Below are positions 1,416 to 62,326 of a stretch of 64,000 nt of DNA, piece by piece. The notes below the pieces were generated by a model, which made no database searches, was not told the DNA's origin, and was given only the letters and a program-made list of their open reading frames with translations. The stretch spans positions 416,001 to 480,000 of the forward strand of contig CAWFJJ010000024.1 in the NCBI GenBank assembly GCA_963816185.1, in the 5' to 3' direction. Both the position numbers and the translations under genes were made by a program. This DNA comes from Thermoanaerobaculia bacterium. GTDB taxonomy: Bacteria; Acidobacteriota; Thermoanaerobaculia; UBA5066. Within the stretch, counting starts at the first letter, position 1; each line of letters opens with the position of its first letter.

Positions 1416-1455
1416 TCTAAGAAGAGAAAAGAGAAGAGAAGATTTTCTTAGAAGG
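1416..1455. repeat. Back-to-back pair of the dispersed TTCTTAGAAG motif in the aspS-aroB spacer
   Basis: TCTAAGAAG at 1416-1424 (minus-strand copy) and TTCTTAGAAGG at 1445-1455, inside a purine-rich AT island. Confidence 0.85.
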
Positions 1456-1471
1456 GGGAGAGGGGAAGGGC

Positions 1472-2614
1472 ATGCGATTGCGGAAAGCCCGGCATCTCTC
1501 CTCCTTTTCGTTTGTCGCGGGGGGCGTCCGCACGGACGTCGTCGTTGGGCCAGGCGCGCTGCGCGGCCTCGACGCGCGCCTCGGCCGCATCGCGCCGGGT
1601 CGCTGGTTTCTCATCTCTTCTAAGAAGGTCTTTCTCCTGCATGGCCACTTGCTGTCATCTGGAGGCGTTGAGCGGGTCCTCGATCCGAAGCCCCTCCTCG
1701 TCCCCGACGGCGAGGCCGCCAAGACCTGGGACGTCCTCGGGCGCCTCCTCGAAGAGCTCGCCCGGCGCGGGCTTCGGCGGGACGGTGGCATCGTCGCGCT
1801 CGGGGGCGGAACGGTGGGGGACGTCGCGGGCTTCGCGGCGGCGCTCGCTCTGCGCGGGGTGCCCGTCGTCCAGGCTCCCACGACGCTGCTCGCGGCCACC
1901 GACAGCGCCCTCGGCGGCAAGACCGCCGTGGATCTTCCTTCCGGAAAGAACCTCGCGGGCGCATTCCATGCGGCCCGCCTCATCGTCGTCGACACGTCCA
2001 CGCTCGAGACTCTTCCGCTTCGCGCGTATCGCTCCGGCCTTGCGGAGGTCGTGAAGACCTCGATGCTCGACGCGGGATTCCATCGTGCGATGGCGCGTCT
2101 CCTGGCGCCTCTCTCCTCCCGCGAACCGGTCGCCGTCTCCGAGGCCGTGCGCCGGTCTCTGGCCGTCAAGGCGCGCTCCGTGGCGCGCGATCCGTTCGAA
2201 CGGACCGGAGAGAGGGCGGCCCTGAACCTCGGACATACCGTGGGTCACGCCCTCGAGACGGCGTCCGGGCATCGCCTCGAGCATGGGGAGGCTGTCGCCT
2301 GGGGGCTGCTCGCGGCCTTGCGCCTTTCGGTTACGCGAGCGGGGCTCTCGACGCGGATGGCCGAAGCCCTCGCCGGGCGAGTTCTCCGCCTCGTGCAGCC
2401 GCCCGGGCCCTCGGTCGCAGCGTTGCGCGGGGTCCGGGCGCTTCTTCGCTCCGACAAGAAAGCCGACCGGCTCGGCCTCAAGGCGGTCGTCCTCGCGAGG
2501 CCCGGTCGGGCCATGCTCGTGAGCGCCGACGCGTCCGAGCTCATGGAGGCGTTCGAGGCCGTTCTTGCGCGGTACAATAGCGTTGGATGGGTGTTGCCCG
2601 GGTTCCGCGCCTGA
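1472..2614 (+). CDS. aroB: 3-dehydroquinate synthase
   Basis: GEAAKT, ALGGGTVGDVAGF, PTTLLA.DSALGGKT, LNLGHTVGHALE, HGEAVA. Confidence 0.93.
   Translation: MRLRKARHLSSFSFVAGGVRTDVVVGPGALRGLDARLGRIAPGRWFLISSKKVFLLHGHLLSSGGVERVLDPKPLLVPDGEAAKTWDVLGRLLEELARRGLRRDGGIVALGGGTVGDVAGFAAALALRGVPVVQAPTTLLAATDSALGGKTAVDLPSGKNLAGAFHAARLIVVDTSTLETLPLRAYRSGLAEVVKTSMLDAGFHRAMARLLAPLSSREPVAVSEAVRRSLAVKARSVARDPFERTGERAALNLGHTVGHALETASGHRLEHGEAVAWGLLAALRLSVTRAGLSTRMAEALAGRVLRLVQPPGPSVAALRGVRALLRSDKKADRLGLKAVVLARPGRAMLVSADASELMEAFEAVLARYNSVGWVLPGFRA
1617..1627 (-). repeat. Dispersed motif copy inside aroB
   Basis: CTTCTAAGAAG, read as S-S-K-K. Confidence 0.8.
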
Positions 2615-5114: not shown

Positions 5115-5461
5115 GGTTCGCAGATGCGCTCGAAGACCTTCTGGACGCTCCGGGCGCCTTGGGCGCCGCCTTCATCGATCCGCAGGGCGAGGTCATCGCA
5201 CGCGTGGGTGCCAAGAGCGCGACGGAAGTTCTCGGCGCCTACCAGTCCGTCTGGCTGGGTGAGCTCCGCCGCGCGGCCGAGCGCTCGGGCCTCGGCGAGA
5301 TTTCCAATCTCTCGTTCCGGTTCGCGAACCGACGGATTCTCACGAGTCACGTGAAAGCGGGCTACTTCGTCCTCGTCGTCTTCGACGAAGGCGGCCAGCC
5401 GCACGCGGCGCGCCCGCGGCTCGACGAGGCCGGCGCGCGTCTCGTCTCCGAGATCTCGTGA
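5111..5461 (+). CDS. Roadblock/LC7 (MglB-like) domain protein
   Basis: 116 aa; PGALGAAFIDPQGEVIA and GYFVLVVFD patterns typical of Roadblock/LC7. Confidence 0.75.
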   Translation: MRFADALEDLLDAPGALGAAFIDPQGEVIARVGAKSATEVLGAYQSVWLGELRRAAERSGLGEISNLSFRFANRRILTSHVKAGYFVLVVFDEGGQPHAARPRLDEAGARLVSEIS

Positions 5462-5490
5462 GCCGCGCGTCCTGCTAGTCTCGGAGGTCG

Positions 5491-7552: not shown

Positions 7553-8224
7553 ATGTTCACCGGCCTCATTTCCGCCGTGACCCGCGTCGTGTCCCTCAGG
7601 GCCGGCGCGGAAGGCGCGATCCTCGCGGTCGAGCGCCCGACGGCCTTCGAAGACGTGGCCGTCGGTGAGAGCATCGCCGTCTCCGGGGTCTGCCTGACGG
7701 TCGTATCTCCGGCTCCCGGCCGGGTGCTCTTCTTCGACCTCTCGCCCGAGACGCTCGCACGCTCGGCTTTCGGGGACCTGGGCCCGGGCGTGGGCGTGAA
7801 CCTCGAGCGCTCGCTGGCCGCGGGCGACCGCCTCGGCGGCCACATCGTCGCGGGGCACGTGGACGGCACCGCCGAAGTGCTCGCTGTCGAGAAGTCCGGC
7901 GACTCGTGGACCTTCCGGTTTTCGCTCCCGGCCCCCCTCGCGCGTTACACCGTCGAAAAAGGCTCGATCGCCGTGGACGGGGTCTCGCTCACCGTGGCGA
8001 CGCTCGGAGAGGACTCGTTCGACGTAGCCGTCGTTCCGCACACGTTCAGGTCCACGACTCTCGGAGCGAAGAAACCCGGCGACCGCGTGAACATCGAGGT
8101 GGACGTCCTCGGAAAGTACGTCGAGCGACTCCTGGCGGCGCGGCTCGGCGAGACGCGCGATGCCGCTGAAGCGCAAGGCGCGCGGGACGAGCGCCTGCGC
8201 GGCCTCCTGACCGAAGGCTCGTGA
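7553..8224 (+). CDS. ribE: Riboflavin synthase (alpha chain)
   Basis: MFTGLI N-terminus, SIAVSGVCLT, VNLERSL, GGHIVAGHVD, KGSIAVDGVSLT. Confidence 0.96.
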   Translation: MFTGLISAVTRVVSLRAGAEGAILAVERPTAFEDVAVGESIAVSGVCLTVVSPAPGRVLFFDLSPETLARSAFGDLGPGVGVNLERSLAAGDRLGGHIVAGHVDGTAEVLAVEKSGDSWTFRFSLPAPLARYTVEKGSIAVDGVSLTVATLGEDSFDVAVVPHTFRSTTLGAKKPGDRVNIEVDVLGKYVERLLAARLGETRDAAEAQGARDERLRGLLTEGS

Positions 8225-9466
8225 CGGCAGACGGCCTCCCGCGGGGCGCAACCGGTGCGCCCGGCGCGTACGTCCACGTGCCTTTCTGCGCGCATCGCTG
8301 CGCGTACTGCTCGTTCGTCGCGCTCGAGGGGAGAAGAGAAGAAGAAGATTTCTTCGAAGGCCTGGAGAGGGAAATTCGCGCGAGGGCGGGCGAGGCCGTG
8401 CGTGGCGCCGCCCGCGCGATTCGCGGTTTTGATTCCGTTTACTTCGGCGGCGGCACCCCTTCGTACGTCGACGCGCGTCGGCTCGGCCGCCTGCTCGGGA
8501 CCTTCGAAGAAATCTTCGGATCTCTCTTCGGACGTCGAAATCACGGCCGAGGCCAACCCGGACGACCTCGACGCGGACAAGCTTTCCGCTCTTTCGTCGA
8601 TCGGCGTGAACCGCCTTTCCATCGGTGTGCAGTCGCTCGTGGACGCGGAGCTTCTTCCGCTCGAGCGGCGGCACGATGCCGCCGCCGCGCGCCGCGCCGT
8701 GTCGGAGGCCGCACGCGCTTTCGGGAACGTCTCGGCCGACCTGATGATCGGCATTCCGGGGCAGACGAAGGAGACTCTGCTTGCGAGCGTCGACGGGCTC
8801 CTCGAAGCTGGCGTGACGCACCTTTCCGCCTATCTTCTCGAGATCGAGAAGGCGCCGAAGCTCGTGGCGCTGAAGAAGGAGCGGCCGGAGCTCTTCGCCG
8901 GCGACGACGAAATGGCGGACGGGTGGGAAGCCGTGGACGAGCGCGTGACGGCGGCCGGCCTGCAACGCTACGAGATGTCGAACTGGGCGAAGCCGGGCTT
9001 CGAGAGCCGGCACAACCTCAAGTACTGGACGCTCGTCCCCGTCCTGGGCTTCGGCGTCGCGGCACATTCGTTCGACGGCATGAAGCGGTACGCGAACACG
9101 GGGATGCTGGCCGAATACCTCCGGCGCACGCGAGAAGGCGTCTCGCCCGTCGCGACCTCCGAAGAGCACCAGGAAGATCTTCTTAGAAGGGAAGAGGGGC
9201 CTGCGTTCGGCCGGAGCCTTATGAGCAAGGTCCCCGCTGGCCACGATCTTCCCAGAAGGAAAGAGGAACTCATGCTGGGGCTTCGGCTCGCATGCGGCGT
9301 CCCCTCTTCCTCATTCGAAGAAATTTGCAGAACCTTGCCCAGAGCATCGGCCTCACGGATGGAGGACGCGCTCTTCGCCGGACTCCTCGAAAAACACTCT
9401 GGCTGCGTCCGCTTCACGCGCCGCGGCGTGATGTTGTCGAACGAGGTGTTTTCGCTCCTCGTCTAG
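8221..9466 (+). CDS. hemW: Radical SAM heme chaperone HemW (HemN-like); apparent frameshift near 8520
   Basis: YVHVPFCAHRCAYC and YFGGGTPS in one frame; EITAEANP, NRLSIGVQS, YEMSNW, HNLKYW in the other; the frames join at about 8515-8530. Confidence 0.88.
9176..9266 (+). repeat. 22-bp imperfect direct repeat containing the dispersed motif, bracketing an in-frame insertion in hemW
   Basis: GATCTTCTTAGAAGGGAAGAGG (9176-9197) and GATCTTCCCAGAAGGAAAGAGG (9245-9266), 69 bp apart. Confidence 0.8.
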
Positions 9467-23392: not shown

Positions 23393-23479
23393 GCCGGAGT
23401 GGCGGAATGGCAGACGCAGGGGACTCAAAATCCCCCGGTCCACAAGGCCGTGAGGGTTCGACTCCCTCCTCCGGCACCA
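23393..23479 (+). tRNA. tRNA-Leu (anticodon CAA)
   Basis: Acceptor GCCGGAG/CTCCGGC, anticodon arm GGGGA-CTCAAAA-TCCCC, long variable arm, GGTTCGA T-loop, encoded CCA. Confidence 0.96.
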
Positions 23480-29242: not shown

Positions 29243-29280
29243 CCCGCACGCAGATCTCCGACGGTTCTGGGAGGAGCGCC

Positions 29281-29377
29281 GAGAGATTTCTTAGAAGGGG
29301 AGAGAACACCGGCCGCCGCCGCGGCGCGCCGCGCGAGGCATGCAAAGGCCGTCCACGCGCCTTCTCAGAAGATCTTC
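29281..29377. repeat. Facing pair of dispersed-motif copies in the carD downstream spacer
   Basis: GAGAGATTTCTTAGAAGGGGAGAG (29281-) and the variant CTTCTCAGAAGATCTTC (29361-) in opposite orientation. Confidence 0.75.
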
Positions 29378-29436
29378 TTCCTAGGCGAGATTGACCGCCG
29401 CGATGGGGCGGCGGCAACTTCCGTATAGTGGCGAGG

Positions 29437-49562: not shown

Positions 49563-49573
49563 CTTCTTAGAAG
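49563..49573 (+). repeat. Dispersed motif copy overlapping the prmA ribosome-binding site
   Basis: CTTCTTAGAAG followed by GTGAATATG. Confidence 0.8.
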
Positions 49574-49579
49574 GTGAAT

Positions 49580-50428
49580 ATGGCCGAGGCGAAGGTGGGC
49601 GCCGCACGCATCGAGATTCCGGCGGCCCAGCGAGGGTCATTCGAAGAAATGCTCTTCGAAGGAATGGGCGAGCTCCAGTTCTCCTCGACCGTAGCGCCGG
49701 ATGGGCGGCTCCTCCTCTGGGTGAACTCGTCGGACGCGGCGACCGCGCTGGCGCAACTCGCCGCACTCGGCGCTCGCGGCCTTTCCACTTTCGAAGAAGA
49801 ATCCACCGACTGGGTCGCCGAGTCCGCGGCCTTGAGGAAAGCCGTTTTCGTCGACCGCTATCTCTTCGACCCGCACGAAGGGTCGCTCGCCACCGTCCCA
49901 CCTCCCGGCGTTCGCAGGCTCTTTCTTCCCGCGGTCCGCGCTTTCGGGACCGGCTCGCACGAGTCCACGCGGCTCGCCGTGCGACTCCTTCTCTCGGAGG
50001 ACCTGCGCGGCACGCGCGTCCTCGACGTCGGCTGCGGCACCGGGACGCTGGCATTCGTGGCGGCGCTGGAAGGCGCGCGCCACGTCGTGGCCTTCGATGT
50101 GGACCCTGATGCCGCTTTCGCGACACGCGAGCAGGCGCGCGCGAACGGGATTCCGCGGGTGTCGGCGTTCGCCGGTCCCCTCGACGCGGTCCCGAACGGC
50201 GCCCGATTCGACGTCGTCGTCGCGAACATGATCCACGAGGAGATCGAACCTCTCCTCCCCGCGCTCCGTGTCCACCTCGCACGCGCGGGTCGGCTTCTTT
50301 GCTCCGGGCAGCTCGGCGAGCGGAGAGGGGAGTGGGAGGATTTGCTTCGCAAAGAAGGCTTCCGGCAGATTCGCTCCATTCAGGAGAACGAATGGCTTGG
50401 GAGTGCGTGGGTTTCTTCGAATGAGTGA
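49580..50428 (+). CDS. prmA: Ribosomal protein L11 methyltransferase
   Basis: AFGTGSHESTR, VLDVGCGTG, FDVVVAN; position after dnaJ. Confidence 0.9.
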   Translation: MAEAKVGAARIEIPAAQRGSFEEMLFEGMGELQFSSTVAPDGRLLLWVNSSDAATALAQLAALGARGLSTFEEESTDWVAESAALRKAVFVDRYLFDPHEGSLATVPPPGVRRLFLPAVRAFGTGSHESTRLAVRLLLSEDLRGTRVLDVGCGTGTLAFVAALEGARHVVAFDVDPDAAFATREQARANGIPRVSAFAGPLDAVPNGARFDVVVANMIHEEIEPLLPALRVHLARAGRLLCSGQLGERRGEWEDLLRKEGFRQIRSIQENEWLGSAWVSSNE

Positions 50429-51344
50429 GAACGCCCCCTCGCGTCCGCCGCGCGTCTACGTGCCCGATCTGGCGGAGCAGCGGGTGGAGTCCGAAGAGAG
50501 ACCGGAGAAAGAGATTTCTCTTAGAAAGGAAGAAAGAGACCACGTTCGCTCGAGGAGGCTGAGGGATGGCGACGAGGTCATCGCGCTCGACGGAAAGGGC
50601 GCCAGGGCGCTGGCCGTGCTCGCGAAGGGCGGCAGTGCCATCGCCCTCTTACCTTCTAAGAAGATCTTGTCTCCCTCTTCCTCCTCGTCCTCGGCCGCGG
50701 CCTCATCTCACTCATCACACCTGCCCGGCGAGCCCGCGAACCGCGTGATTGTCGCCCTCGCGTGCGCGGAGCCGGCGCGAATCGAATGGGCCATCGAGAA
50801 GGGCACCGAGTGCGGCGCGGTGGGCTTCGTCCTCCTCGCGTGCGAGCGCTCGCAGAAGGGCCACGTAGCGGCGCTCTCGTCGCCCGCCCGTCTCGAACGC
50901 CTGCGCCGGATCGCCGTCGAGGCGACGAAGCAGTGCGACCGGACGATCGTACCTTTCGTGGAGGGTCCGAAGAGCCCGGAAGAGTTTCTTAGAAGCGGAA
51001 GAGAGATGGGCTCTTTCCGCCTCCTAGTCGCAGACCCTTCGGGAACCGCGATCGAGAACTGGCCGGTGCCCTCTCGACGCACGCGCGTGCTGTCTGAGCG
51101 AAGCGAGTTCACGCGCGAAGGAGAGGGGGCTCCGGCCGGACGAGATCGCCAAACATCGGGTCCCGGGCCGCTCCTCGGCGCGGAAGAGACTGTGATCGCT
51201 ATAGGCCCAGAGGGCGGGTTCACTCCGGCTGAAATACTCCTATTCGAAGAAAAAGGCGCTCTTCGGACCTCACTCGGCGCACGCGTCCTCCGCCTGGAGA
51301 CGGCCGTGGTCGTGGCGCTCGCTCGGTTGGTCGATCCCCTTTGA
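50421..51344 (+). CDS. rsmE: 16S rRNA m3U1498 methyltransferase (with insertions)
   Basis: EK.TE.G, EATKQC.R, IGPEGGF, LGARVLRLETA. Confidence 0.92.
   Translation: MSENAPSRPPRVYVPDLAEQRVESEERPEKEISLRKEERDHVRSRRLRDGDEVIALDGKGARALAVLAKGGSAIALLPSKKILSPSSSSSSAAASSHSSHLPGEPANRVIVALACAEPARIEWAIEKGTECGAVGFVLLACERSQKGHVAALSSPARLERLRRIAVEATKQCDRTIVPFVEGPKSPEEFLRSGREMGSFRLLVADPSGTAIENWPVPSRRTRVLSERSEFTREGEGAPAGRDRQTSGPGPLLGAEETVIAIGPEGGFTPAEILLFEEKGALRTSLGARVLRLETAVVVALARLVDPL
50511..50995. repeat. Three dispersed-motif copies inside rsmE
   Basis: GAGATTTCTCTTAGAAAGG (50511-), CTTCTAAGAAGATCT (50653-), TTCTTAGAAG (50986-50995). Confidence 0.8.
51061..51137. repeat. Palindromic element inserted in frame in rsmE
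   Basis: GGCCGG..CCCTCTC..CGCGCGTG / CACGCGCG..GAGAGGG..CCGGCC nested inverted repeats around GAGCGAAGCGAG. Confidence 0.65.
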
Positions 51345-55202: not shown

Positions 55203-57565
55203 GATTTCACCTCGACCTTCGCCGGCATCCCGGCGCGGAGCGGCCCGGCGATCGTGGGCGCGGCAGCCAGCACGCGCGCCGGCGTGATCGGCAGGTCGGT
55301 GATGCGGCTCCCGATCGCGTGGGAGACGGCGTTCGCGATGGCCGCGGCGGTCGGGACGATCGCTGGCTCGCCGATCCCCCTGGCGTGCGCATTGTTCTTG
55401 CCGGCGAAGAGGTCGAGGACGATCGTCACGACCTCGGGAACGTCCTTCGCGCCCAGAATCTTGTACTGCTCGATGTTCGGGTTCATGAAGCGGCCGGTCA
55501 AAACGTCGATGACGCGCTCCTCGAAGAGCGCATAGCTGACGCCTTGGAGCACGCCGCCCCGGATCTGGCTCTCGACGCCCGTTCTCCACACGGGGAGGCC
55601 GCACGTATGCGCCGCGGCGACCTTTTCGACCCGCACGACGCCCGTCTCGACGTCCACGACCACCTCCGCGAACTGCGCCCCTAAGAGCCGCGAATCGGCG
55701 CCGTCGTAGTCGGGAGCGCGGTCGCCGGTCGCGAGGATCGACTCTCCGCTCATCCTCGAGCAGACCTTTGCCCACTCGGCCGTCTTGCCGTTTGCGCGGA
55801 ATGCGCCGCCTTCGAGCTTCACGTCTTCCGGTCTCGCCCCGAGGAGCGGGGCCGCGATCTCGGCCATCTTCCGCGCGGCATGGAACGCCGCCGCTCGGAC
55901 CGCGGGGATGAGAGAGGTCGTCGTCGTCGAGCCTCCGGAGGCGGGCCCGTAGGGGTACTTCGAGTTGCCGATGTGGACGGTCACGGCCTCGACGGGAAGA
56001 CCGAGCTCCTCGGCGGTCACGAGCCCGATCGCCGTGCGGATCCCGCCGCCGATCTCCTGGACCCCGTTCTCGACCTCGACGGCGCCGTCTTTGTGGATAC
56101 GAACCTGGACCTGCGAGCCCTTGTGGACGATCGTGTACCAGACGGCGGCGGCGCACCCGAGGCCGCGCCGGAGCGGAAGGCCCGCGGCCGCCGCGGCTTT
56201 GTTCGCCCGCGTGATCGCTTCGCGTCGCGACCAGCCGATGGCTTTCGCCGCGGCGTCCCATTCCGCGCGGCGAATCTCGGAAGGATCGTTCTGGTAGCGC
56301 ACGACGAGCGGATCCAGCCCGCAGGCTTCGGCCACCGCGTCGAGGGCGGTCTCCACGGCGAACGCGCCCTGCGGGTGGCCGGGAGCGCGCATCGCGCAGC
56401 CGGGGCCGAGGTGCGTGAAGACGTCCGACTCGTCGACCTTCACGTTTGGGAACCCGTACGCGTTCTTCGCGAATGAGCCCGTACCCGTCCCGGTCGCGAC
56501 GCCGGCCGTCCCGACGGAGGTGTACTGGACGGCGGTCACGGTCCCGTCTTTCTTGTAGCCGACCTTGACCGTGTTGATGGAGTCCGGACGGTTGCCGGCG
56601 GCGAGATGCTCTTCCTTTCGGTCGAGGATCAGCTTCACCGGCTTACCGGCCTTTTTCGCGAGCTGCGCCGCGAAGACGCCGTAGTCGCCGGCGCCGAACT
56701 TCGCGCCGAAGCCGCCGCCCACGTATTCCGCGACGACCTCCACCTTGTCTTTGGGAATCCCGAGGACCGTCGCGAGCTCGTCCTTGACCGTGAACGTGCC
56801 CTGCGTGGACGCGTACACCTTCAGGTTGTCGCCTTCCCACTCGGCGAAGAGCGAATGCGTTTCCATGGGGACATGCGTCTGCACCACGGTCGTCATCGTC
56901 AGCTCGAGCGTGGAGTCGGCTTCCGCGAAGCCCTTCGCCACGTCGCCTTTCCCGGACGTCTTCGGACCCCGCACGTTGCCGTGCTGAGGCACGGCGCCGC
57001 CCGCGGACGGCGCGTCGCCGGCCGTGCGCTTCTCCTGGACGGTCTTTTCGAAGACGAGGGGGGAACCCTCCTTCATCGCGTCCACGAGCCTGACGGTGTG
57101 CGGCTTGACGTCGTACTTCACGGCCACGGCGTGGAGGGCGTCGTCGGCGAGCTGCGGCGTCGCGGCCGCGAGCGCGAGGACCGCCTCGCCGTGATAACGA
57201 ACCTTCTTCTTGTCCGGCTTCACCCAGACGACGCCCATCGCGTCGAGCTTCGACGTGTCGATCGACACGATGTCGGCATGCGCGTAGGGCGAGCGCAGGA
57301 TGCGCCCATAGAGCATTCCGGGGCGGATGACGTCGTGCGTGTACGTGGCGCGGCCGGTCACCTTCTGGGGGCCGTCGAGGCGCGGGCGGCGCCGCCCGGT
57401 CAGCGGACGGTCGACCGTGTCGTAGGGAACCGGGTCGCCGGGAGGAAGAGAGATCTTCTTAGAAAGTGTATGGCCCGCGAGGCCTATCTGGACGATCGCC
57501 TCGGTGCCCGTTGTGTCGGGCACCTTCGCAGAAATCTTCTCCTGGGGGTTCCTCTCATCAGCCAC
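55199..57565 (-). CDS. Xanthine dehydrogenase family molybdopterin-binding subunit (PaoC/YagR-like)
   Basis: KVTGRATY, HVPMETH, GGGFGAK, AMRAPG, SGGSTT, RGIGEP. Confidence 0.94.
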   Translation of the reverse strand: MADERNPQEKISAKVPDTTGTEAIVQIGLAGHTLSKKISLPPGDPVPYDTVDRPLTGRRRPRLDGPQKVTGRATYTHDVIRPGMLYGRILRSPYAHADIVSIDTSKLDAMGVVWVKPDKKKVRYHGEAVLALAAATPQLADDALHAVAVKYDVKPHTVRLVDAMKEGSPLVFEKTVQEKRTAGDAPSAGGAVPQHGNVRGPKTSGKGDVAKGFAEADSTLELTMTTVVQTHVPMETHSLFAEWEGDNLKVYASTQGTFTVKDELATVLGIPKDKVEVVAEYVGGGFGAKFGAGDYGVFAAQLAKKAGKPVKLILDRKEEHLAAGNRPDSINTVKVGYKKDGTVTAVQYTSVGTAGVATGTGTGSFAKNAYGFPNVKVDESDVFTHLGPGCAMRAPGHPQGAFAVETALDAVAEACGLDPLVVRYQNDPSEIRRAEWDAAAKAIGWSRREAITRANKAAAAAGLPLRRGLGCAAAVWYTIVHKGSQVQVRIHKDGAVEVENGVQEIGGGIRTAIGLVTAEELGLPVEAVTVHIGNSKYPYGPASGGSTTTTSLIPAVRAAAFHAARKMAEIAAPLLGARPEDVKLEGGAFRANGKTAEWAKVCSRMSGESILATGDRAPDYDGADSRLLGAQFAEVVVDVETGVVRVEKVAAAHTCGLPVWRTGVESQIRGGVLQGVSYALFEERVIDVLTGRFMNPNIEQYKILGAKDVPEVVTIVLDLFAGKNNAHARGIGEPAIVPTAAAIANAVSHAIGSRITDLPITPARVLAAAPTIAGPLRAGMPAKVEVKS
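57451..57466 (+). repeat. Dispersed motif copy in the N-terminal region of the Mo subunit
   Basis: AGATCTTCTTAGAAAG, read as L-S-K-K-I on the coding strand. Confidence 0.75.
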
Positions 57566-59528: not shown

Positions 59529-62326
59529 ATGACGACTGCTGACGGCTGGACCTCGCGCAGGGTCCGCGAGACGTTCCTGTCCTTCTTCGAGGAGAAGGGC
59601 CACACGCGTGTGGCGTCCTCCTCGCTCGTGCCCGCCGAGGACCCGACGCTGCTCTTCACGAACGCGGGCATGAACCAGTTCAAGGACCTTTTCCTCGGGC
59701 GGGAGAAGCGCGCGTACGTTCGGGCGACCTCGTCGCAGAAGTGCGTGCGCGCGGGCGGGAAGCACAACGACCTCGACAACGTGGGCTACACCGCGCGGCA
59801 CCACACGTTCTTCGAGATGCTCGGAAACTTCTCCTTCGGCGATTACTTCAAGAGGGAGGCGATCGACTACGCATGGGAGCTCGTGACGTCGAACGCGTTC
59901 TACGGGCTCGACCCGTCGCGCCTCTGGGCGACGGTCTATACGGAAGACGACGAGGCGGCCGAGCTGTGGGGGCGCTACCTCCCGAAGGCGCGCATCGCCC
60001 GCTTCGGCGAGAAGGACAACTTCTGGTCGATGGGCGACACGGGGCCGTGCGGCCCGTGCAGCGAGATCCACTACGACCAGGGCGAGGGAGTGCCCGGCGA
60101 CGCGACGCCGAACGGCACCGGCGACCGCGTCATGGAGATCTGGAATCTCGTCTTCATGCAGTTCGACCGCGACGCCTCGGGAAAGATGACCCCGCTGCCG
60201 AAACCGAGCGTCGACACGGGCGCCGGCCTCGAGCGCATCACGGCGATCCTCGAGGGCAAGAACAACAACTACGACACGGACCTCTTCGCGCCGATCATCA
60301 AGAAGATCGAGGAGATCTCGGGTCAGAAATACGTCGGCGGCATGGCCGTCGAAGATGCGCCGTTCCGCGTGATTGCAGATCACGCGCGAGCGGCGACGAT
60401 GCTCATCGCGGACGGTGTGATCCCTTCGAATGAGGGAAGGGGATACGTCCTGCGCCGGATCATCCGGCGCGCCATTCGATATGGAAGAAGACTCGGCCTC
60501 GTCGATCCTTTCCTCTTCAAGCTCGTGCCGGGGGTAACGGAGGCTCTGAAGATTTTCTTCGAAGGTGAAGAGATTCGCGGCGCAAAGGCGATGTTTGGCC
60601 TGATCGACGAAGAGGAAGGCCCGATCGGCGCAGAAGAAGTTCGTTTTGCGAAAACGATGACGGCCGGTGCCGACCGCGTTGGCGAAGCGATTTCCGACGT
60701 GCGACGGCGGGGCGAGACATCGCTTTCAGGCGCCGCAGCGTTCCGCCTCTACGACACGCACGGCGTTCCTCTCGAGCTCATCGAAGAAATCTCTTCTGAC
60801 GAAGGGGTTCAAGTCGACCGGTCCGGCTTCGACGTCGAGCTCGAGAGGGCCCGCGAGCGGAGCAAGGGAGCCTCGAAGTTCGAGCACGAAGGAGGCCTGC
60901 CGGCCGACGAGCAGATCGACGCTTCATGGGCGACCGAATTCCGCGGATATCCCGAGCAGGATTTCGTGCGGCTGTAGGCGCGAAAGTGCTCGGTCCTGCT
61001 TTCTAGCGGAGCGCGGCGAGAGGGTGGATTTTCTTAAAGTGGGGAGAAGGGCTGGTGCGTCACGGACCGCACCGTCTTCTATCCGGAGGGCGGCGGTCAG
61101 GTGGCCGACCAGGGAGAGATTCTCTGGTTTGCCGAGAGCGGGGGCGACGGGCGCGCGGACGGTCATCGACGCGCGGCGCGCCCCGAATGGGAAGTCCGTC
61201 CTACACCTTCTAAGAATCTCCAGCGGTTCCCTTGCGGTGGGTCAACTCGTGCGTATGAAGCGTGGACGAATGGACCCGCCGCAAGACGCAGGCAAACCAT
61301 ACCGGGACTCACCTCCTCCACGCCGCGCTGCGGAAGGTGCTCGGCGAAAGCGTTCGGCAGATGGGCTCGCTCGTCGCGCCCGACCGCCTGCGCTTCGACT
61401 ACGCGGCCTCGCGCCCGACGACCGCCACCGAAGTCCGTGAGATCGAGCGACTCGTGAACGAGGAGATCCTGCGGGACCGCGAGGTCGGCAAGGCCGTCAT
61501 GTCGATGGACGACGCGAAGAAGAAGGGCGCGATGATGTTCTTCGGCGAGAAATACGGCGAGCAGGTCCGCGTCGTCGACGTGCCGGGATTCTCGACGGAG
61601 CTCTGCGGCGGCTGCCACGTCGGCCGTACGGGCGAGATCGGCGCCTTCAAGGTGATCTCCGACAAGGGCCTCGCGGCCGGCGTCCGACGAATGGAGGCGG
61701 TCACCTCGTTGAATGCGGTCGAAAGGCTCCAGAAGGACGAAGAAATCCTGGCGAATATGGCGCAGACGGCGAACGTCCCTCCCGACGAGCTGCCGGCGAA
61801 GCTGAAGGAGGCGCTGGATTCTCTTAGAAGGAAAGAGAAGGAGATCGCCGCCCTCAAACGCGACCTCGCGCTGGCTGGCATAGGTGCGGGCGCCGGCCCC
61901 TCGAGCGCGCAGCCGGGCGCGGCGCCTTCTGTACATTCACCTTCTAAGAAATCCTCCTCTTCGGACGCAGCGGCTGAGGAGGGCCTGCACGAGATCAACG
62001 GCATCAAGGTCCTCGCACGCCGCGTGCCGTCGCTCCCGACGAACGAGCTCCGTAACCTCGCGGACACGTTCCGGAGCAAGCTGAAGTCGGGCGTCGTGCT
62101 GCTCGGAACCGAGCTCGAAGGCAAGGTCACGCTGCTCGCGGCGGTCACGTCGGACCTCGTAGCCCGGGTCTCCGCGAACGAGCTGGCTCAGGTCATGGCA
62201 CCGGCCGTCGGGGGCAGGGGCGGCGGAAGGCCGGACCTCGCCCAGGCCGGCGGCAAAGACGCGGCCCAGATCGAGCCGGCTCTCGCGCTGGGCGTCGCGA
62301 AGGTGCGAGAGAGGCTTTCCGCCTGA
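59529..62326 (+). CDS. alaS: Alanine--tRNA ligase; reading frame broken by several indels at about 60970-61265
   Basis: [32 protein letters not shown]; [11 protein letters not shown] in a shifted frame; [27 protein letters not shown]. Confidence 0.93.
61207..61950. repeat. Three dispersed-motif copies inside alaS
   Basis: CTTCTAAGAA (61207-61216), TCTTAGAAGG (61822-61831), CTTCTAAGAA (61941-61950). Confidence 0.8.

Follow-up and report, generated by a model that had tools for sequence, protein, structure and literature searches.

REPINs (repetitive extragenic palindromic, or REP, doublets forming hairpins), as described for Pseudomonas fluorescens SBW25, are built from an over-represented extragenic word that occurs in inverted doublets with 71 bp between invariant 16-mers; they number in the hundreds, and singlets and clusters of the word are also found (PMC3116915). 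In that description the spacer is poorly conserved and it is its length and hairpin capacity that matter, while the elements are presented as extragenic and are defined by a cognate REP-associated tyrosine transposase (RAYT) gene that is flanked by the same REPs (PMC3116915). The Rickettsia palindromic elements (RPEs) of Ogata et al. (2000) are palindromic repeats of about 150 bp that lie in frame in unrelated housekeeping genes, where they encode a conserved, element-derived peptide; the family is described as occurring both between and within genes and as being tolerated as a protein extension (PMC10969869). In this report we analyze a 64-kb stretch of DNA, referred to as the window, from an uncultured soil member of the Thermoanaerobaculia (Acidobacteriota) represented by genome bin G000 (5.09 Mb, 30 contigs, 67.2% GC, 94.9% complete). 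The window contains a gene for a HemW-like radical-SAM heme chaperone whose coding sequence carries 23 additional codons at a duplicated 22-nt motif. This motif proved to be the arm of a dispersed inverted-repeat family, and we compare that family with the systems above and consider how the additional codons arose.

The two 22-mers, GATCTTCTTAGAAGGGAAGAGG and GATCTTCCCAGAAGGAAAGAGG, lie on the same strand with 69 nt from start to start and are identical at 19 of 22 positions. Both are read in the open reading frame (ORF) 8255..9466, in which they encode DLLRREE-GPAFGRSLMSKVPAGH-DLPRRKEE-LMLGLR. The coordinates, frame and peptide reported in the initial annotation were all reproduced. When up to three mismatches were allowed, the 22-mer matched the window four times, against an expectation of 0.00 from 100 shuffles. 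The region is made up as follows.

9176..9197, plus strand: forward arm, copy 1 (GATCTTCTTAGAAGGGAAGAGG); its core, at 9180-9190, is the canonical TTCTTAGAAGG, and upstream it keeps the native flank CAGGAAGAT
9198..9244, plus strand: interior of the inserted unit, 47 nt, encoding GPAFGRSLMSKVPAGH and containing GGGGCC..GGTCCCC
9245..9266, plus strand: forward arm, copy 2 (GATCTTCCCAGAAGGAAAGAGG); its core, at 9249-9259, is the variant TTCCCAGAAGG, and downstream it keeps the native flank ..GAGGAACTCATGCTG (= E-LMLGLR)
9300..9326, minus strand: resident reverse arm, with the core CATTCGAAGAA at 9312-9322 (plus-strand letters), overlaying VPSSSFEEIC

The insertion is genuine and is not an artefact of assembly, as a 270-nt short-read contig from the public run X5 spans positions 9046-9315 with eight mismatches and zero gaps. 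Since the X5 contig differs at eight positions, X5 is unlikely to be the assembly's own sample sharing an error. Contigs from two other runs (X2 and X3) were short, ended at or before the arms and were uninformative on the insertion. The degenerate inverted repeat that the initial annotation had seen in the interior is present as GGGGCC..GGTCCCC; nevertheless, the predicted DNA fold of 9168-9272 was no better than that of shuffled sequences (-16.9 kcal/mol, z -0.91). When 9190-9335 was folded, GGAAGAGGGG paired with CCCCTCTTCC.

The search for HemW orthologs covered 24 same-genus genomes, of which 23 yielded one, as did six outgroup genomes (including the unpublished G025). The 23-codon segment is absent from all 23 same-genus orthologs and from all six outgroup orthologs, which confirms that the 69 nt are an in-frame insertion found only in this lineage. 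The earlier proposal of an insertion or duplication at the motif thus stands, and the loop is not one that close orthologs share. In each of the 23 same-genus orthologs, a single copy of the motif (D[FLS]LRRKEG, e.g. GATTTTCTTAGAAGGAAAGAGGGG) lies immediately 5′ of LMLGLR, and in one of them (G002) the same C-terminal arm has gained five residues (15 nt). The reverse arm over VPSSSFEEI (9300-9326) is likewise common to the genus. The ancestral state was therefore a convergent pair, formed by this reverse arm and the site of copy 2, around the conserved LMLGLRLACG. RNAalifold predicted 18 arm-arm base pairs for the C-terminal convergent pair across 23 orthologs. The outgroup proteins lack the arm, yet their aligned C-terminal segment is 113 aa long, as in most members of the genus. 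A second convergent pair of 24-nt arms (88% complementary) flanks the conserved GGGTPS motif in the N-terminal part of the protein:

8330..8367, plus strand: resident forward arm, with the core TTCTTCGAAGG at 8350-8360 and a purine-rich flank, overlaying RREEEDFFEGLE
8494..8535, minus strand: resident reverse arm, with the core CCTTCGAAGAA at 8501-8511 (plus-strand letters), overlaying LGTFEEIFG

This N-terminal pair is common to the genus and absent from the outgroups, and the N-terminal segment, 342 nt long in the outgroups, measures 342-360 nt in most genus members. Taken together, these comparisons show that HemW has carried two convergent arm pairs over native codons since the ancestor of the genus, with little or no net change in length, and that in the lineage of G000 a 69-nt unit (an arm plus a unique 47-nt spacer) was added at a resident forward arm. 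The addition turned the forward-reverse pair into a forward-forward-reverse composite, an arrangement that also occurs at six or more other loci. Copy 1 joins the native upstream flank to the canonical core, and copy 2 joins the native downstream flank to a core variant that is also present in the HemW gene of G017 (GATCTTCCCAGAAGT). We considered this shared variant (TTCCCAGAAG) as a sign of which copy is the resident one; the argument is weakened by a 1,034-column tree in which G000 is nearest to G003, G007 and G011 (support 0.85) and G017 is not its sister.

The two HemW 22-mers are copies of the arm of a genus-specific, dispersed inverted-repeat family. The 22-mer matches the G000 genome 31 times and its backwards control once, while the exact 11-mer core TTCTTAGAAGG occurs 201 times (11 for the control), or 541 times with one mismatch (92 for the control). 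In each arm the core stands between a purine-rich flank and an inner part that is G-rich (for example GTGAATGGGG or GAAGAGGGG), and the usual layout of an element is purine-rich flank, TTCTTAGAAGG, GTGAATGGGG, GC-rich interior, CCCCAYTCAC, CCTTCTAAGAA and pyrimidine-rich flank. Among 175 neighbor pairs less than 400 nt apart, 133 are convergent, 12 divergent and 30 direct (14 + 16). Of the 124 convergent pairs spaced by less than 260 nt, 21 fall at the mode of 72-74 nt, and the distribution has a long tail; the spacings of direct pairs concentrate at about 25-51 nt and at about 72-90 nt. For 103 of 120 interiors no other copy exists in the genome; the other 17 have a non-self match, mostly of 27 nt or less. 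Using a purpose-built, calibrated codon-usage classifier, we compared the location of the 201 exact arms with that of random positions: 93 arms (46%) are non-coding on both sides (random, 13%), 91 lie at a gene boundary (random, 36%) and 13 (6.5%) lie inside coding sequence (random, 45%). Arm pairs favor neither the 5′ nor the 3′ ends of genes (64 versus 55). All 26 genomes of the genus contain the repeat, with 37-267 exact copies (controls, 1-9), as do all seven genomes of a second, sister genus, with 1-31 copies, some of them paired. Eight further genera of the taxonomic family have 0-1 copies, and 16 genomes of two sister families have 0-2 copies, a result that is unaffected by the unpublished G030 among them.

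In the bin, the small contigs C10-C23 and C27 duplicate stretches of the large contigs C1, C8, C24, C25, C28 and C29 at 90-99.7% identity (C14, for instance, duplicates C24:140572-183165), so the bin holds strain-variant contigs and the copy counts are slightly inflated. Over 149 kb of aligned strain-variant sequence there are only three indels of at least 15 nt, and none of them is a newly gained arm. One element is present as two strain variants (C13:2596-2729 and C30:304354-304451) that differ by a 34-nt interior block, and interiors therefore vary in length among near-identical strains. In addition, the interior of the long pair at C28:225098-225250 matches C8:138501, C8:252218 and C24:123111 at 98-100% over 49-95 nt; it is another small repeat, recently active and nested between arms.

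How does this family compare with the systems described above? As in REPINs, the arm word is over-represented (201 versus 11) and mostly extragenic, and it forms inverted doublets, here with 72-74 nt between arm cores and mostly unique spacers; its copies run into the hundreds, and single arms and larger clusters occur as well. Unlike REPINs, no arm-flanked RAYT gene was found among 29 genomes of the genus, and arms also lie in frame inside housekeeping genes, some of them overlaying native codons. The family resembles the RPEs in that the same repeat is in frame in several unrelated housekeeping genes (insertions in HemW and in alanyl-tRNA synthetase, AlaRS, were checked) and in that it lies both between and within genes. 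In contrast to the RPEs, only the arms of about 22-35 nt are conserved (as LRR, FLEG, PSKKS and TFEE motifs) and the elements do not encode a conserved peptide some tens of residues long; of the 201 exact arms, just 13 fall in coding sequence; units are added beside existing arms; and the two families have no sequence relationship, the host phylum here being Acidobacteriota. The architecture matches that of REPINs and the in-frame behavior that of RPEs. Two further systems offer partial parallels. HIP1 (highly iterated palindrome) of cyanobacteria is described as an abundant 8-mer present about once per gene (PMC5861425, PMC4390886). Our arms share with it a lineage-specific word in high excess, some in-gene copies of which appear to have arisen in place; they differ in being asymmetric, in occurring as phased pairs and in avoiding genes (6.5% in coding sequence versus 45% of random positions), whereas an uptake-signal or HIP1-like word would be scattered over coding regions roughly according to the share of the genome that these make up. 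HIP1 spreads by substitution. During CRISPR integration by Cas1-Cas2, the repeat is duplicated on both sides of a new spacer, and at HemW, too, a repeat of about 22 nt flanks, on either side, a segment that is new and unique and whose length is roughly constant. In contrast to CRISPR arrays, the elements are dispersed and mostly inverted, with direct arrangements in 30 of 175 pairs, and G000 has no Cas1. We found no published description of the motif or of Thermoanaerobaculia repeats, and publications containing the 11-mer appear unrelated to judge by their titles and the openings of their abstracts.

The initial annotation had linked the motif to the growth of protein loops, and further genomes and a second gene bear this out. 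In the N-terminal loop of HemW, a second arm in direct orientation, together with a spacer (E(R/K)DFLEG..), adds 63 nt in G011 and 54 nt in G006; the two spacers are homologous to each other (z 4.6), which indicates one older event. The lengthened N-terminal segments (G006, G011, G007 and G019) measure 414, 423 or 474 nt, all multiples of three. The second gene, AlaRS, contains the following pair:

61821..61950, plus strand: convergent arm pair inside AlaRS (DSLRRKEKE ... SPSKKSSS), DNA fold z -3.03

Here the forward arm (DSLRRKEKE) is a base-for-base replacement of the native coiled-coil sequence seen in the outgroup, while the reverse arm (SPSKKSSS) and a Gly/Ala-rich stretch of variable length are inserted. 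This insertion is present in 22 of 24 same-genus orthologs, degenerate in G009 and missing from G022. In G007 (L183) the C-terminal segment of AlaRS is 493 nt long, which is not a multiple of three, and has a TAG within the match; this anomaly is a frame break in a 53%-complete bin. In the genome as a whole, 37 arms (one mismatch or fewer) lie in 34 open frames, including those of ThrRS (threonyl-tRNA synthetase), a class-II aminoacyl-tRNA synthetase, a Mur ligase, GlmU, Sua5, CtaA, AcrB and alpha-2-macroglobulin; insertion relative to orthologs was checked for HemW and AlaRS. Arms within genes occupy only stop-free frames (LRR, FLEG, PSKKS, TFEE). They are compositionally foreign, with a GC content at third codon positions of 0.46 against 0.80 in the host frames. 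Relative to the closest genomes, G003 and G011 (84-90% DNA identity), four of the six indels of at least 20 nt in the aligned part of the window involve arms. In HemW and AlaRS, new arm-plus-spacer units have been added beside resident arms, in frame every time.

Two other length differences were also seen. The HemW genes of G007 (L036) and G019 (L038) contain a different, 114-nt in-frame element that aligns with window positions 8390-8420 and has two strong hairpins (..CCCGAACG..GATGTCAAGGG..CCCTTGACATCG..CGTTCGGG.. and ..CGGCGGC..GCCGCCG..). The element is unrelated, and its presence in the HemW genes of two species means that genes of this genus are entered by a second repeat family as well. 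At window positions 5459-5475, G011 is longer by about 520 nt (gaps of 520 and 15 nt); the region has a small hydrophobic ORF and no arms.

With regard to the origin of the 69 nt, direct neighbor arms that are 55-100 nt apart have a flank identity of 0.446 (n = 13), whereas that of random arm pairs is 0.331 (p = 0.0002). The arms of convergent pairs are no more alike than random ones (0.328 versus 0.331). The excess similarity of direct neighbors makes an insertion that duplicates the arm the reading we prefer. We consider it likely that the genus-specific arm family supplied the site and that the 69-nt unit was added at the resident HemW arm by duplication of that arm around new DNA. The initial annotation had likened the repeats to a target-site duplication. 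What holds of that likeness is that a duplication around new DNA is favored; what does not is the nature of the target, for the motif was already at this site in the ancestor of the genus and a resident, dispersed repeat arm rather than an ordinary target was duplicated, and no transposase linked to the arms was found. The duplicated stretch in HemW is the 22-nt arm itself, and the event would have copied the resident arm around new DNA much as in a long target-site duplication. A process of this kind would act at the arms. It could involve a trans-acting recombinase or nuclease that recognizes their quasi-palindromic core, or else the repair of breaks, or template switching, at hairpin-forming arms. 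The inserted copy may persist because its length is a multiple of three, the frame of its arm is free of stops (CTT AGA AGG = LRR) and it lies in a linker just before HemN_C. Going by its letters, the unit may also be a putative complete hairpin element whose second end is supplied by the quasi-palindromic core already resident there, and by eye the end of the interior (CCCCGCTGGCCAC) resembles the inner part of the family's reverse arm, CCCCAYTCAC. The predicted fold had prompted the idea that the interior came from the resident reverse arm by template switching or inverted duplication, which is not supported: its score (z 3.1) was obtained with the family-consensus GAAGAGGGG included and fell to p = 0.38 without it.

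Several observations weigh against an arm duplication around new DNA. The flank identity of the HemW direct pair itself is 0.433, a value reached by 19.5% of random arm pairs, so the duplication is supported for the class of direct neighbors and not for this case alone. The shared core variant is found in a genome that is not the nearest relative, so that either of the two copies may be the older. Copies of the 47-nt interior elsewhere, a search suggested by the initial annotation, were not found in G000 or in 28 other genomes of the genus, and its exact 32-mer was absent from the metagenome contigs searched. The new DNA thus lacks a donor in the DNA searched, for which an arm duplication does not account. 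At two intergenic junctions where presence and absence can be compared (1389-1497 against G003 and 29245-29416 against G011), there is no clean, short target-site duplication, but the flanks have diverged. The covariation term given by RNAalifold for the 23 orthologs was minimal (-0.23), and selection for the hairpin is not demonstrated. The placement of the insertion in a linker rests on domain boundaries, as the structure model has low confidence over residues 148-236.

The search for an enzyme also counts on this side. G000 has no match to the Y1/RAYT family (PF01797). Of the 29 genomes of the genus, four score above the cut-off (24 of the 28 others have none), and where such genes are present they are flanked by ..CACAGACCTGACCCC.. 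or GAGACCTGACCCC repeats and not by arms. No match to Cas1 (PF01867) was found in G000. Its single IS4/5-like transposase has its own, unrelated ends and no arms, and the locus of its single IS630-like transposase is likewise without arms. A long autonomous element with arm ends was not found either, the 46 long-range forward..reverse pairs having no shared interiors. Since G000 is 94.9% complete, the absence of an enzyme from it alone is weak evidence, and the genus-wide RAYT result is stronger. As a separate observation, Y1/RAYT-like genes of about 320 aa with their own inverted repeats occur at L210 (G044), L211 (G018) and L212 (G020); the CACAGACCTGACCCC/GAGACCTGACCCC-flanked genes look like a separate candidate REP-RAYT system of a few genomes in the genus.

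A broader account, which we regard as possible but doubtful, is that of a REPIN-like family spreading in two steps without a RAYT or a recognizable transposase. In the first step, arms would overwrite existing sequence, including codons of essential genes, by substitution or short-patch conversion that keeps the length. In the second, resident arms would nucleate the stepwise addition of arm-plus-spacer units whose spacers are new and without a donor. Its agent would perhaps be a genus-specific recombinase or nuclease for the quasi-palindromic core, or the repair of hairpin breaks with filler DNA.

It is unlikely that the family is an ordinary MITE (miniature inverted-repeat transposable element) moved in trans by a DDE transposase, with the HemW repeats as its target-site duplication. 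Bacterial MITEs such as Correia, ERIC and BOX are described as small elements with terminal inverted repeats, no transposase coding and occasional in-frame intragenic copies (PMC10969869). The arms fit much of this description: they form terminal inverted repeats on small elements without coding capacity for a transposase, they are mostly outside genes with some in-frame copies within them, they number in the hundreds, their presence differs between species, and the genome has one IS630-type and one IS4/5-type transposase. However, a recently active MITE family should share its interiors, and 103 of 120 are unique; only the arms are shared between copies. No partner insertion sequence with the same ends was found, arms occur at neither transposase locus and no interior is shared among the long-range pairs. 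Several arms also overlay native codons without any insertion. To our knowledge, the target-site duplications of bacterial DDE elements are far shorter than 22 nt.

The longer loop could instead have been imported whole, by homologous recombination with the HemW allele of an unsampled relative in which it had lengthened earlier, and would then only look recent. The lack of an interior donor in the genome and genus would fit such an import, as would the core variant TTCCCAGAAG held in common with the non-sister genome G017 and the presence of the insertion in a strain of about 97% identity from another run. On the other hand, the flanks in HemW have no visible block of divergence relative to G003 and G011 (86-90% on both sides), and an import shifts the origin elsewhere without explaining it, the architecture still being that of an arm-plus-spacer unit. 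We think this quite unlikely.

Highly unlikely, in our estimation, is a plain tandem duplication of the 69-nt stretch by slippage, followed by fast divergence in which a constraint at the nucleotide level kept the arm. It would account for direct repeats exactly 69 nt apart and in frame, for unit peptides that match by eye at nine of 23 positions and for the similarity of direct neighbor arms. Nevertheless, the new interior does not resemble what comes after the resident arm (p ~1 with 5,000 dinucleotide shuffles, the alignment scoring below their mean), and the analogous unit of G011 also has no significant similarity to its neighbor (p = 0.22). The event postdates the split from relatives of 83-90% identity, yet the interiors cannot be aligned. 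Finally, an artefact of the long-read metagenome bin is barely credible: although the assembly does have single-base indel errors and strain-variant contigs, the short-read-derived contig from another run covers the whole insertion without a gap, and the insert is in frame and carries the canonical arm of the family.

The identity of the host gene and the position of the insertion in its product were also examined. The gene, as defined from ORFs, Pfam and NCBIfam, is as follows.

8221..9466, plus strand: gene for a HemW-like radical-SAM heme chaperone

ORF 8255..9466 is predicted to be HemW-like, based on the Pfam domains Radical_SAM (PF04055) and HemN_C (PF06969), the CxxxCxxC motif (HVPFCAHRCAYCSF, in the frame of 8221) and the closest model, the HemW equivalog TIGR00539. 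This was the top NCBIfam model (167.6 bits, 4e-49), although the score was obtained with a partial query of 309 aa and falls below the full-length cut-off of 205.4. A sequence search of the PDB gave a sole match, a radical-SAM methyltransferase, over residues 1-101. The insertion corresponds to residues 214-236 of the 309-aa piece and HemN_C begins at residue 241; the alignment to TIGR00539 is interrupted at the insertion in G000 and continuous in G011. The AlphaFold model of the piece is confident at residues 1-147 and 238-295, and its pLDDT (predicted local distance difference test) score is below 50 throughout 148-236. The model is compatible with an insertion in the linker before HemN_C, a placement that would follow from the domain boundaries, but at a pLDDT below 50 it offers no proof that the inserted residues form a surface loop.

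The first 100 residues of HemW, with the CxxxCxxC and GGGTPS motifs, are in the frame of 8221, and the remainder of the protein is in that of 8255..9466. G000 has one extra base near 8518-8521 (GGATCTCTC), where G011 reads GG-TCTCTC (G019 was also compared), and in a contig of run X1 one base is missing at 8518. The N-terminal segment has a length that is a multiple of three in 28 of 29 orthologs, with G000 alone at +1. The position is inside the CT-rich, low-complexity flank of the reverse arm at 8494..8535, and the one-base frameshift is probably an error of the long-read assembly.

Elsewhere in the window, three further arm pairs were examined.

29288..29370, plus strand: intergenic convergent pair with 72-nt spacing, within a 168-nt segment that is absent from G011
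50518..50662, minus strand: convergent pair, both arms kept in G019 and G014, DNA fold z -3.03
1445..1626, plus strand: forward arm in an intergenic spacer and reverse arm in the start of the next gene, from ortholog comparison

At the last of these, the forward arm and the interior are absent from G003, while the reverse arm is kept in all five relatives compared. A DNA fold z of -3.03 was obtained for two of the four complete pairs or regions folded. An Rfam scan of the window gave nothing at the arms, its sole match being a tRNA gene at 23393-23476. Two forward arms lie at likely gene starts, 49564-49580 (..TTAGAAGGTGAATATGGCC..) and 57456-57475 (..TTAGAAAGTGTATGGCC..), and are kept in G014 and G019. 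These arms can double as a module of Shine-Dalgarno sequence and start codon, a rare arrangement (two of 201). A general role of the arm as ribosome-binding site and start was rejected, as only two of 201 arms open a coding frame compared to 6.3% of random positions.

In conclusion, the earlier interpretation of an in-frame insertion at a duplicated motif is supported, and the motif belongs to a family with practical and biological consequences. Short-read contigs are broken at the arms and gene callers are misled by them; in GC-rich genes, the AT-rich patches of rare codons that the arms form could be taken for errors or for the result of horizontal transfer. Rickettsia is the best-known case of small palindromic repeats invading genes in frame, and REPINs have been known as elements outside genes that are tied to RAYTs; here both are combined in an uncultured genus of Acidobacteriota, with no RAYT found for the arms and with interiors that have no donor. 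The two-step account of overwriting followed by stepwise addition, if true, would represent a previously undescribed mechanism of sequence propagation and a continuing source of new loops in housekeeping enzymes. If our reading is correct, this genus would provide a tractable natural system in which to study the spread of short repeats that have no dedicated transposase and the origin of new protein segments, with gains in HemW and AlaRS that are dated across about 25 species.

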